This document shows, piece after piece, positions 1-6,328 of a stretch of DNA of 6,328 nt. Under the pieces are notes generated by a model, which saw nothing but the letters and a program-made list of their open reading frames with translations, did no database searches and was not told where the DNA came from. The stretch is taken from the IMG/VR virus record IMGVR_UViG_2541047844_000011; one strand, 5' to 3'. The stretch is from a virus. Lineage: Duplodnaviria; Heunggongvirae; Uroviricota; Caudoviricetes. Made by a program: the position numbers and the translations under genes. Every line of letters starts with the position of its first letter. Position 1 is the first letter of the stretch.

Positions 1-3667
<3,667 letters not shown>

Positions 3668-3686
3668 ATTTTAAAACCCAAATTCG

Positions 3687-3714
3687 GGCACCAGAAATGG
3701 TGCCTTTTTTATTT
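3687..3714 (+). terminator. Rho-independent terminator-like hairpin downstream of J
   Basis: ggcacc (3687..3692), loop agaaat, ggtgcc (3699..3704), followed by tttttt at 3705..3710 and then attt. It begins 20 nt after the J stop. Confidence 0.6.
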
Positions 3715-3725
3715 GTGGAGTGAAT

Positions 3726-5747
3726 ATGGCAGTACAGATTTCAGGTGTGCTGAAAGACGGTGCAGGAAAACCGATACAGAACTGCACCATTCAGCTCAAA
3801 GCAAAACGTAACAGCACCACAGTTGTGGTGAACACGGTGGCCTCAGAAAATCCGGATGAAGCCGGACGTTACAGCATGGATGTTGAGTATGGCCAGTACA
3901 GCGTCGCCCTGCTGGTTGAAGGTTTTCCGCCTTCACATGCCGGGACCATCACCGTGTATGAGGATTCTAAGCCGGGGACATTGAATGATTTTCTGGGCGC
4001 TGCAACAGAAGATGATGTTTGTCCGGAGGCACTGTATCGTTTTGAAAAGATGGTGGAAGAGGCGGCACGCAACGCTGAAGCCGCCTCTCAGAGCGCAGCG
4101 GCAGCAAAGAAATCAGAAACAGCAGCGGCATCGTCCAGGAACGCGGCGAAAACATCAGAGACGAATGCAGGTAACAGCGCGAAAGCGGCAGCTTCTTCAA
4201 AAACAGCCGCACAAAACGCAGCAACAGCGGCAGAACGTTCAGAGACAAATGCCCGTGCGTCAGAAGAAGCCTCCGCAGACAGTGAAGAGGCTTCCCGCCG
4301 TAATGCAGAGTCAGCCGCTGAAAATGCCGGAGTCGCCACCACAAAAGCGCGGGAGGCCGCAGCAGACGCAACAAAGGCCGGGCAGAAAAAGGATGAGGCT
4401 CTGTCGGCAGCGACACGAGCTGAAAAGGCGGCAGACCGCGCAGAAGCCGCAGCGGAAGTGACTGCAGAGCCCTGTGCGAATATAGTGCCGCCGCTGCCTG
4501 ATGTGTGGATACCGTTTAACGATTCACTGGATATGATTACGGGTTTTTCGCCATCTTATAAAAAGATAGTTATTGGTGACGATGAAATAACAATGCCAGG
4601 CGACAAGATTGTTAAGTTTAAACGTGCTTCAACAGCAACGTATATTAATAAGTCCGGCCAACTCAAGCTTGCTGAAGTTGACGAACCGCGATTTGAGCGC
4701 GATGGCTTATTGATTGAAGGACAGAGGACAAATTATCTGAGGAACTCAAATAAACCAGACTCATGGACTGTTCATTCCGCACTGAATAAAACATTTGGCA
4801 CTGATAAACAGGGGTTCAATTATGCCACGGTGACACCCACGGAAAGTATAGTGGGAACAACAGGTGGCTATACTGTGCATGGTGTGGTTGCAGCAGACAG
4901 ATTCCCGCTGGCAAGTGGTGAATGTTTCACTTTTTCGTGCCGGGTTAAAGGCGCTAAAGCACGATGCAGGTTAAGAGTTTCAGTTATTATTGGTGGAACA
5001 GATACCTTCTCTGCTGACTCTTATCTTGATCTGGATACCCGGATCGCAACAGTAAGCGGTAATACATCCCTTATAACAGCCAAAGCTGAACAACAGGGCG
5101 AGTGGACCTACTATGAGGCCACTTATACAGCTAATACGGACATTGATACCGTTAACTGTGCTTTTTATATGACAAATAAAATAAGTAATGAGCCATTCTA
5201 TGATGACTCAACATTAACCATGACGACGCCGCAAATTGAACTGGGCAATACGGCATCGTCATTTATTGTAACTACAATGCCAACAACACGCGCAAGTGAT
5301 GTAGTTACTATCCCATCGCAGAATAACCTGTCAACACGGCCTTTTACGGTATTGTGCGAAGTAAGCAGGAACTGGAGTACACCGCCCAATGTTGCGCCAA
5401 GGATATTTGATGTTGGAGGGCACAGTATTGATGATAATTATTTATCGCTGGGGTTTGTTGCAACAGGAAAGATAAGCGCCAACGTAGGAATGGTTCAGCC
5501 ACAAATTGCCTCAGATGGAGAAAGGTTCATTGTGGGTGTGAGAGCTAAATCTGATTTATCAGTAAATGCAATATGCAATGGTAATTATACAACAAACCTT
5601 AATGGTAAAATATTTGGAGTTACAGCAACATCGTACCGGTTTGGTGGGCAGACCGCAGCAGGAACGCGTCATTTGTTTGGACACATCAGAAATTTCAGAG
5701 TCTGGTTTAAAGAATTAAATGACAGGCAAATCAAGGAGGCAGTATGA
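3726..5747 (+). CDS. stf: Side tail fibre protein: lambda Stf-like N-terminal domain and Ala/Ser-rich repeat shaft with a non-lambda, low-GC C-terminal distal module (673 aa from ATG 3726)
   Basis: GGAG at 3717..3720 precedes ATG 3726. The N-terminus (MAVQISGVLKDGAGKPIQNCTIQLKAKRNSTTVVVNTVASENPDEAGRYSMDVEYGQYSVALLVEGFPPSHAGTITVYEDSKPGTLNDFL) closely matches the lambda Stf (orf-401) N-terminus from memory. It is followed by degenerate Ala/Ser-rich repeats (KTSETNAGNS..., ERSETNARAS...) as in lambda Stf. From about nt 4470 (aa ~250, ...AEPCANIVPPLPDVWIPFNDS...) composition turns AT-rich and the sequence has no Stf or T4 gp37-like His-rich motifs. The extreme C-terminus (GTRHLFGHIRNFRVWFKELNDRQIKEA) resembles the end of LamG / concanavalin-A-like jelly-roll domains. 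Confidence 0.85.
   Translation: MAVQISGVLKDGAGKPIQNCTIQLKAKRNSTTVVVNTVASENPDEAGRYSMDVEYGQYSVALLVEGFPPSHAGTITVYEDSKPGTLNDFLGAATEDDVCPEALYRFEKMVEEAARNAEAASQSAAAAKKSETAAASSRNAAKTSETNAGNSAKAAASSKTAAQNAATAAERSETNARASEEASADSEEASRRNAESAAENAGVATTKAREAAADATKAGQKKDEALSAATRAEKAADRAEAAAEVTAEPCANIVPPLPDVWIPFNDSLDMITGFSPSYKKIVIGDDEITMPGDKIVKFKRASTATYINKSGQLKLAEVDEPRFERDGLLIEGQRTNYLRNSNKPDSWTVHSALNKTFGTDKQGFNYATVTPTESIVGTTGGYTVHGVVAADRFPLASGECFTFSCRVKGAKARCRLRVSVIIGGTDTFSADSYLDLDTRIATVSGNTSLITAKAEQQGEWTYYEATYTANTDIDTVNCAFYMTNKISNEPFYDDSTLTMTTPQIELGNTASSFIVTTMPTTRASDVVTIPSQNNLSTRPFTVLCEVSRNWSTPPNVAPRIFDVGGHSIDDNYLSLGFVATGKISANVGMVQPQIASDGERFIVGVRAKSDLSVNAICNGNYTTNLNGKIFGVTATSYRFGGQTAAGTRHLFGHIRNFRVWFKELNDRQIKEAV
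4080..4470 (+). repeat. Low-complexity Ala/Ser/Glu/Thr-rich coding repeats within the tail fibre shaft
   Basis: Recurring nucleotide motifs (gcagcggcagc; tcagagacgaatgc at 4156..4169 and tcagagacaaatgc at 4239..4252) encode degenerate peptide repeats. The region is open in several frames on both strands, which accounts for the overlapping ORFs in the six-frame track. Confidence 0.5.
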
Positions 5748-6022
5748 AAGATTTAACTTTGAAATTTCCTGGTAACAGAGAGTTTAAATCCTTCCTGTCA
5801 TCTCTTGACTGGGAGGAGGATGAAGACCTCCAGAATAAACTGTTAGTCGATGAAATTGGTTTCACCTACACAGAAACAGGGGTAACAGAAGAGGGAGAAC
5901 CTGTCTGTGTCCGGAATGACGGTTATTTTGTCAACATTCGCATTCTTGATGACTTGTTTGATGTTTCTGTATTCTCTGATTATGTCGTGGAGCTGGAAAC
6001 ACCGCTTCGGGAATGGAGCTGA
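5744..6022 (+). CDS. Hypothetical small acidic protein (92 aa), translationally coupled to the tail fibre gene
   Basis: The ATG at 5744 overlaps the fibre stop at 5745..5747 (ATGA), and a strong SD (aaggagg, 5733..5739) sits 4 nt upstream. The product has about 22 Asp/Glu against 8 Lys/Arg, including a DWEEDEDLQ run. It is AT-rich like the fibre C-terminal module. I do not recognise a homolog. Confidence 0.7.
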   Translation: MKDLTLKFPGNREFKSFLSSLDWEEDEDLQNKLLVDEIGFTYTETGVTEEGEPVCVRNDGYFVNIRILDDLFDVSVFSDYVVELETPLREWS

Positions 6023-6034
6023 AAGGAGGAAATA

Positions 6035-6328
6035 ATGGATATAAGCCCCTTACTTCATGCACTTTGTGCTGTGGCTGCGCAGATACTGGTTGGTCTTTTT
6101 ACCGGAAACTGGGCTTACGGAGCGATAGCCGGTTGTACGTTCTTCATTGCGCGTGAACATACCCAGGCAGAATATCGCTGGATTGAAATGTTCGGGCATG
6201 GCAAGCGAATGAATATGCCGTGGTGGGGCGGTTTTGATCCGCGAGCTTGGGATGTGGCAAGCCTGATGGATTTTGCTGTGCCGGTGGTGGCGTGTCTGCT
6301 GGTCTGGCTGTTGGTTAATCGTGGGTGA
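6035..6328 (+). CDS. Hypothetical small integral membrane protein (97 aa, 2-3 predicted transmembrane helices)
   Basis: A strong SD (aaggagga, 6023..6030) precedes the ATG at 6035, 12 nt after the upstream stop; the TGA falls at 6326..6328. Hydrophobic segments are LLHALCAVAAQILVGLFTG, WAYGAIAGCTFFIA and FAVPVVACLLVWLLV, with a Trp/charged-rich loop (EYRWIEMFGHGKRMNMPWWGGFDPRAWD). There is no lipobox and no signal-peptide-like positive N-region. I do not recognise a homolog. Confidence 0.65.
   Translation: MDISPLLHALCAVAAQILVGLFTGNWAYGAIAGCTFFIAREHTQAEYRWIEMFGHGKRMNMPWWGGFDPRAWDVASLMDFAVPVVACLLVWLLVNRG

Follow-up and report, generated by a model that had tools for sequence, protein, structure and literature searches.

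What receptor-binding tip does a lambda-like side tail fiber carry when the familiar lambda tip and its chaperone gene are both missing? The question is raised by a stretch of 6,328 nucleotides (nt), given as one strand and called the window throughout, from the Caudoviricetes record IMGVR_UViG_2541047844_000011, which contains a side tail fiber gene and, directly downstream, a small gene that we call ORF92 after its open reading frame (ORF) of 92 amino acids (aa). Side tail fibers set the adsorption speed of temperate coliphages and partly determine which hosts are reached, and exchanging them is how lambda capsids are re-targeted for DNA delivery. An original prediction, made from the letters of the window alone, described the gene as a mosaic with a horizontally acquired and possibly lectin-like distal module, no tfa chaperone gene, and a receptor-binding solution not previously characterized. 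From family profiles and a structural model, the chain is predicted with high confidence to end in a conserved neck and two tandem beta-sandwiches of the concanavalin A (ConA)-like type. With the same confidence, domain 1 is predicted to be of the head-spike-fiber type of the gene transfer agent RcGTA and domain 2 of the Laminin_G_3 / pentraxin / CBM40 type. The features of the fiber gene are listed here, with protein coordinates counted from its ATG at 3726; an alternative GTG start at 3720 would give 675 aa.

3726..5747, + strand: side tail fiber gene, 673 aa, recognized as an ORF, by PHROG 1419 and by homology to phage 21
3726..4118, + strand: N-terminal tail-attachment domain, Pfam PF08400 phage_tail_N (E 2.8e-67, residues 3-133)
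4026..4487, + strand: alanine-rich shaft, recognized by composition and identity to lambda Stf
4488..4709, + strand: conserved neck of the distal module (PPLPDVWIPFNDSL ... FKRASTATYINKSG), nearly invariant columns in the family alignment A1
4710..5294, + strand: predicted domain 1, an RcGTA head-spike-fiber-type beta-sandwich, from NCBIfam NF048003
5295..5735, + strand: predicted domain 2, a Laminin_G_3 / ConA-like lectin beta-sandwich ending in the LFGHIRNFRVW...L.D.QIK tail

As a single query against the PDB the distal module returned no matches, and a family profile was needed. An initial homolog search gave 120 matches, all of them 100% identical over the distal module and unusable for alignment. 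An exhaustive search of 1.84 billion representatives, from clusters formed at 50% identity, recovered a module family of 1371 clusters at E <= 0.001, with 338 at E <= 1e-10; the full 419-aa module is usually C-terminal in proteins of 438 to about 1500 aa. Fifty cluster representatives and the window sequence make up alignment A1, whose conserved stretches are PLPDVW.P.NDSL and F.RASTATY..KSG...A..NEPRFE..GLLIEGQ.TN toward the front and Q.E....ASS.I.T....TRA.D and LFGHIRN.R.W...L.D.QIK toward the rear. Searched against PDB sequences, the A1 profile matched RcGTA Rcc01080 (6tb9_F3) at E 1.7e-43, Sf11 gp17 at 3.8e-20, and E217 gp45 / Pa193 gp46 at about 3e-15. Its last 140 positions matched the S-layer domain protein 4qvs, C-reactive protein, a sialidase carbohydrate-binding module (CBM) and botulinum neurotoxin (BoNT) Hc. 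The NCBIfam domain NF048003 covers residues 331-525 of the fiber over profile positions 1-181 of 182 with a score of 66.8 bits against a cutoff of 36, and the Pfam family CBM_4_9 gives a partial, weak match in the same domain. In domain 2, Laminin_G_3 (PF13385) aligns end to end (positions 4-151 of 151) with module residues 270-416 at E 3.8e-4, and it matches 35 of 51 relatives at E <= 0.01, the best at E 1.9e-11. The AlphaFold2 model, built with A1, is all-beta (pLDDT 90.0, pTM 0.86; 55-89 pLDDT in the neck), and its domain 2 forms a two-sheet jelly-roll beta-sandwich. By Foldseek, this model resembles the Pa193/E217 baseplate proteins, neurexin LNS, CBM40 modules, C-reactive protein and BoNT Hc. 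Thus, the expectation of a LamG/ConA-like C-terminus was right for the last domain, but it had counted one sandwich where there are two, the first being the RcGTA head-spike-fiber domain.

Two other kinds of tip were tried and rejected. A gp37-like tip was ruled out, as neither BLASTP nor hhalign found homology to lambda orf-314. The HxH motif is likewise absent and there are only 6 histidines in 673 aa, which bears out the earlier statement that the fiber lacks the His-rich motifs of gp37/Stf. An intramolecular chaperone was ruled out by the absence of any Peptidase_S74 match at the C-terminus in Pfam or NCBIfam at E <= 1; the fiber instead ends with the last strand and helix of its Laminin_G_3-like domain. 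A gp37-like tip with an intramolecular chaperone would have spoken against the original prediction, and neither feature was found.

The proximal part of the fiber is of lambda type. Residues 3-96 align to the full 94-residue lambda tail fiber chain in PDB 9e7m (E 1.5e-49). Identity to lambda Stf orf-401 is 73% over the first ~158 aa and 53% in the Ala-rich region up to residue ~240. Beyond that point neither BLASTP nor profile comparison with hhalign matched orf-401 or orf-314, so the description of the first ~250 aa as lambda-Stf-like held up well. The N-terminal part (3726-4469) is 25% Ala. Its Ala-rich segment weakly matches the N-terminal stalks of the phage depolymerases 7vyv and 7vz3, a tandem-repeat search found no DNA-level repeats in the shaft, and the segment probably forms a trimeric helical stalk.

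Over its whole length, the fiber protein matches the PHROG 1419 'tail protein' at E 1.5e-294 and is 63% identical to the side tail fiber of phage 21. Temperate coliphages that have been isolated (Escherichia phages Lambda_2E9, 1H12 and the Lambda_ev series) carry the region from nt 3600 to 6328 at 100% identity, and phage 21 (OL657228), whose gene bears the annotation 'side tail fiber', has 67% of it at 93.8% identity. The same region is present to at least 80% in 515 of 5426 complete E. coli genomes, with some match in 4701 of the 5426. By homology we therefore identify the fiber as a lambda-like E. coli prophage side tail fiber of the phage 21 kind, common and already catalogued. The module is not a rare receptor-binding solution: phage 21 and about 500 complete E. 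coli genomes carry it, and it is included in PHROG 1419 and covered by an NCBIfam domain.

A pseudogene reading of the gene was ruled out, since strain 118UI has an open frame and isolated phages carry this stretch at 100% identity. RefSeq/PGAP nevertheless splits the fiber of locus L001 (NZ_CP032515.1) into two 'incomplete' pseudogene pieces, 6127-6490 and 7123-8148, the first taking its name from the N-terminal domain and the second called 'phage head spike fiber domain-containing protein', although the frame is open there from 6076 to 8148. This split looks like an annotation artifact caused by the unmodeled Ala-rich middle. Near-identical copies of the fiber in other E. coli genomes and phages (H1, H26-H36 and L023) are interrupted by IS4, IS3, IS5 or a three-gene mobile element, and such frequent targeting by insertion sequences fits the dispensability of side fibers.

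How the distal module came to sit on this anchor is best seen by comparison. In 40-residue blocks against phage 21, identity is 90-100% to residue ~280 and 62-65% for ~280-360, then mostly 17-40% for ~360-640, with the exception of 57% at ~520-560, the inter-domain junction, and the last ~33 residues are again 78% identical. The neck is 62-90% identical to that of phage 21, where the core reaches only about 20-40%. Locus L074 has the inverse pattern, in which the anchor differs (20-45% identical) and the module is closer (55-85%). Among its relatives the module is joined to three N-termini, namely PF08400, tail-collar (PF12571) and Phage_fiber_2. It also occurs as a 492-aa protein between gpW and gpJ in a P2-like baseplate operon of Aeromonas and as a 449-aa protein encoded after the terminase gene on a metagenomic T7/SP6-like contig. 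These comparisons support a gene mosaic in which a lambda-type anchor and shaft appear to have been placed on a different distal module. We infer that the core (residues ~360-640) is a cassette exchanged between the conserved neck and the C-terminal tail, which would make this fiber a specificity allele of the phage 21-type side tail fiber.

The composition of the gene had been the first argument for such a module, which was said to be AT-rich from about nt 4470 and to have codons unlike those of J or of the fiber N-terminus. GC content is indeed not uniform, falling from 0.556 to 0.424 at a maximum-likelihood change point of nt ~4515. However, the shaft is GC-rich because of its GCN (Ala) codons, and when Ala codons are excluded the values are 0.466 for the proximal and 0.407 for the distal part, so that about half of the drop is due to the end of the 25%-Ala shaft. 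GC at third codon positions (GC3) falls from 0.476 to 0.367 (z = 2.8). In a within-amino-acid permutation test of synonymous codon usage, the distal fiber differed clearly from J (p < 0.0005) and only marginally from the proximal fiber (p = 0.06). The proximal fiber also differed from J (p = 0.0015), and therefore it is the whole fiber that differs from J. Foreign codon usage is thus a weakly supported account of the GC drop, and modular exchange is argued from the comparative evidence, the module being found on different anchors, rather than from codon usage.

No Tfa-like or tfa-sized gene follows the fiber, as had been stated, but that statement overlooked a conserved gene coupled to it. This gene, ORF92, is the least understood part of the locus and the most useful new point to emerge from it.

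5733..5739, + strand: Shine-Dalgarno (SD) sequence AAGGAGG for ORF92, inside the end of the fiber gene, read from the sequence
5744..6022, + strand: ORF92, 92 aa, conserved partner of the module
6035..6328, + strand: ORF97, a 97-aa small membrane protein, PHROG 1443 (function unknown)

The ATG of ORF92 (5744) overlaps the fiber stop codon TGA (5745-5747) to form ATGA, with the strong SD 5 nt upstream, and the product is an acidic (pI 4.05), cytoplasmic-type protein. Homologs, ranging in identity from 93% down to about 25%, occupy the equivalent site in Escherichia, Silvania, Buttiauxella, Leclercia, Atlantibacter and Aeromonas, and as a rule their start codon overlaps the stop of the preceding gene. 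Starting from ORF92 homologs in IMG/VR, a module-bearing ORF ends at the ORF92 start in 79 of 80 loci, and the lone exception has only 85 nt of upstream sequence; these 80 viral loci are mostly closely related Escherichia prophages and not independent samples. An ORF92 homolog also accompanies the module in the P2-like baseplate operon and on the T7/SP6-like contig, and it is such cross-genus and cross-morphotype cases that carry the weight of the apparent linkage. In alphaproteobacterial and Solemya-symbiont loci, a 122-136-aa ORF that aligns weakly stands in its place. ORF92 therefore lies where a chaperone gene would be expected, directly downstream of the fiber and co-inherited with it. 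It belongs to PHROG 1361, whose 408 clusters at 90% identity are all annotated 'hypothetical', and it has no Pfam family and no fold relative. Neither ORF92 nor ORF97 matches Tfa/Caudo_TAP in Pfam, and against lambda Tfa itself BLASTP found no similarity to ORF92 and hhalign gave a probability of 0.1%.

In Aeromonas-type loci a further ORF of 76-99 aa lies between the fiber and the ORF92-like gene (L007 5218-5496, L012 5185-5415, L015 5191-5490 and L106 4852-5082). It belongs to PHROG 6098 (function unknown), weakly matches a 'tail assembly chaperone' PHROG (E 3.9e-5), and has a hydrophobic C-terminus and a CC..HD.DY motif, which we take to resemble the catalytic motif of phospholipase A2.

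We consider it fairly probable that the distal module is a lectin-type adhesin on a lambda-type side tail fiber. By homology to lambda, the N-terminal domain docks the fiber on the tail tip, and the Ala-rich segment would provide the trimeric stalk. The two beta-sandwiches may then bind surface polysaccharide (O-antigen, capsule or lipopolysaccharide core) weakly and multivalently, which would make the reversible phase of adsorption faster, ahead of the binding of J to its outer-membrane receptor, and specificity would reside in the hypervariable core of fiber residues ~360-640. In the closest tested relative, the RcGTA head spike fiber, cell binding was better when capsule was present (PMC10218006). 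Self-folding beta-sandwiches would dispense with the Tfa-type chaperone that interdigitated gp37/Stf tips require, and ORF92 would most likely be dedicated to this module, aiding its assembly or serving as an accessory, with the conserved neck or tail as its target. We judge the chances that ORF92 is a fiber factor to be about evenly balanced. With somewhat more doubt than trust, we also put forward that it represents a new class of tail-fiber accessory protein, the obligate partner of the GTA-spike/LamG module in sipho-, myo- and podophages, and that the fiber is a collectin-like 'bouquet'. If so, ORF92 could help in folding or trimerization without being related to Tfa, or could remain attached, as a small subunit, to the conserved neck and tail, and the bouquet would consist of three independent lectin heads on one trimeric stalk.

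Several points weigh against this proposal. Taken alone, the fiber scores below the Pfam gathering score of Laminin_G_3 (21.1 vs 27.6 bits), so that membership is likely at the level of the family and not formal for this sequence by itself. ConA-like folds also bind proteins, as in neurexin LNS and BoNT, or are enzymes, as in GH16 and the lyases, and therefore the fold does not prove a sugar ligand. Domain 1 occurs in monomeric contexts (the Sf11 distal tail protein, E217 gp45 and the GTA spike). ORF92 is similar in sequence or fold to no known chaperone (Tfa, gp38, gp57A and the like), and it is 93% identical to its phage 21 counterpart while the two fiber cores share only about 20-40% identity. 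ORF92 thus fails to follow specificity, and its place at the right-hand flank of the cassette could by itself account for some of its linkage. Finally, the literature searched, whose coverage left out most subscription journals, yielded no characterization of the fiber type, its accessions, its PHROG and NCBIfam identifiers or ORF92; neither a receptor or structure for this kind of fiber, that of phage 21 included, nor a role for ORF92 turned up there, and the main text of the Eligo STF-chimera preprint does not describe this fiber family.

An alternative for ORF92, which we regard as unlikely, is that it is a moron working jointly with ORF97, a membrane protein, for example to exclude other phages or to modulate the host, and that its linkage to the fiber is only positional. 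The absence of chaperone homology or fold and of co-variation with the hypervariable core would suit this idea, as would the arrangement of the two genes. ORF92 and ORF97 share a reading frame 12 nt apart, and in two natural variants (P0272 and P0274) a change of TGA to Cys or Trp fuses them into one 194-aa protein, which may hint at a functional link or just at tolerated read-through. However, ORF92 homologs follow the module without ORF97 in Silvania, Buttiauxella, Leclercia, Atlantibacter and Aeromonas, and they do so also between gpW and gpJ in the P2-like operon and on the T7/SP6-like, lytic-type contig. The overlap of the ORF92 start with the fiber stop also argues against a moron, and PADLOC returned no match for either ORF, leaving the idea of a defense gene unsupported. 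ORF97 itself has its own SD, AAAGGAGG, and the phage 21 annotation gives it a 29-aa signal sequence and two transmembrane domains. Its homologs follow the fiber only in Escherichia-type loci, and because of this restricted linkage it is probably outside the fiber system.

For the distal module, it is improbable in our view that the ligand is a protein receptor, such as an outer-membrane porin, instead of a carbohydrate. Lambda Stf does use the porin OmpC as receptor, and some of the best fold matches of the module (neurexin LNS and BoNT Hc) bind proteins or gangliosides and not simple sugars.

Still harder to credit is a module that serves mainly as a docking platform for a second receptor-binding protein, giving a branched fiber with ORF92 as the adaptor. 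What speaks for it is an ORF of 234-358 aa that follows the ORF92-like gene in seven loci (L004 5605-6645, L005 5584-6288, L006 1873-2577, L008 5527-6486, L011 5557-6414, L016 2347-3423 and L018 5527-6258). The five of these that were scanned (L004, L005, L008, L011 and L016) match only the distal ends of long tail fibers, through PHROGs 4563, 1980, 5481, 1699 and others, and have no anchor domain; the ORF of L006 starts like that of L005. Relatives of domain 1 are also found in proteins that carry fibers or spikes, Sf11 distal tail protein gp17 and E217 gp45. In Sf11 and E217, however, it is other parts of the protein that dock. Moreover, the window, phage 21 and the 1H12 group are without a second fiber gene and have ORF97 and then sitDCBA instead, and in the Aeromonas P2-like locus the pair does not adjoin the fiber gene.

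It is barely credible that the module works enzymatically and degrades surface polysaccharide as a glycanase or lyase within the ConA-like glucanase superfamily, as no glycoside hydrolase or lyase family matched in Pfam or NCBIfam, the best fold matches are non-catalytic binding domains, and the residues that do not vary are found in the conserved neck and between the domains (RASTATY, EGQ.TN, Q.E...ASS.I.T...TRA.D), not in the variable core.

The lectin-type fiber and ORF92 lie at the 3' end of a lambdoid tail operon, with all genes of the window on the + strand. Two features precede the fiber gene.

185-3667, + strand: J, with the complete gpJ Pfam domain set
3686..3705, + strand: terminator-like hairpin with a trailing T run, separating J from the fiber gene, by consensus match only

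A terminator is annotated at the position equivalent to this hairpin in phage 21. The hairpin was the sole noted element in a promoter and terminator scan of the window, whose counts were about those of shuffled sequence. J is compositionally mosaic, as its last third (2501-3664) has a GC of 0.49 and a GC3 of 0.56 compared with 0.59 and 0.71 in the first two thirds. A stretch internal to J (2522-2615) recurs as a direct copy, at 95% identity, in the first 94 nt of the window, and from nt 95 there follow the end of gene I (~30 nt), the spacer between I and J, and then J. This J'-'I junction near nt 94/95 is essentially absent from the 5426 complete E. coli genomes, in which most matches start at query nt 91. 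Either a rearrangement that is rare or a chimera produced in assembly accounts for it. Just past the end of the window, in phage 21 and in the prophage of E. coli 118UI, the sitABCD iron/manganese transporter operon lies directly downstream on the opposite strand (L001 8821-12270 and L002 6860-10309). It is cargo at the fiber-distal end of the late operon.

Nothing known about phage fibers is overturned by these results. They concern one of the commonest fiber types in E. coli prophages, with the allele itself in about 500 of 5426 complete genomes and relatives in thousands, and they point to a practical scaffold for engineering, consisting of two lectin-type domains that are each self-contained, a putative specificity cassette flanked by conserved sequence, and a co-traveling 92-aa gene.

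Among known systems, RcGTA Rcc01080 shares a homologous domain 1, with the common motifs RA(S/T).ATY...EPR, ...E..TN and Q.E.G...SS.IPT...TRA.D. Unlike the fiber, the GTA protein sits on capsid vertices through a 10-residue N-terminal anchor, whereas domain 1 here ends a tail fiber stalk; and the profile match to Rcc01080 did not reach a Laminin_G_3 domain, whereas domain 1 here precedes a second lectin-like domain. The fold of domain 1 is also that of the appendage of the Sf11 distal tail protein, described as large, extra and of unknown function (PMC12724387). The same type of domain is a peripheral domain of the E217 and Pa193 wedge proteins. In contrast to the fiber, Sf11 gp17 (9occ) and the wedge proteins E217 gp45 and Pa193 gp46 (8env, 9b45) are built-in tail or baseplate subunits and single chains. 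The CBM40 of sialidases, AbnA domain 4, the pentraxins and BoNT Hc-N are more distant, at 7-18% identity and in a different context, and none of the ligand-binding residues of ConA-like CBMs could be matched in the fiber. Lectin-like beta-sandwich tips are in themselves a known kind of phage adhesin. The fiber resembles lambda Stf in its N-terminal attachment domain, its Ala-rich shaft and its position after J, and it differs from the His-rich, gp37-like and Tfa-dependent tip of lambda in having no orf-314 similarity, no HxH and no Tfa; lom is also absent between J and the fiber here. The closest likeness is to phage 21 (CPT_21_22) and the proteins of PHROG 1419, with the same order of J, fiber, a 92-aa ORF (93% identical) and a 97-aa membrane ORF. 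Phage 21 is near-identical in anchor, shaft, neck and C-terminal tail, and it is in both beta-sandwich cores (~360-640), mostly 17-40% identical, that the two fibers part, pointing to a different specificity allele.

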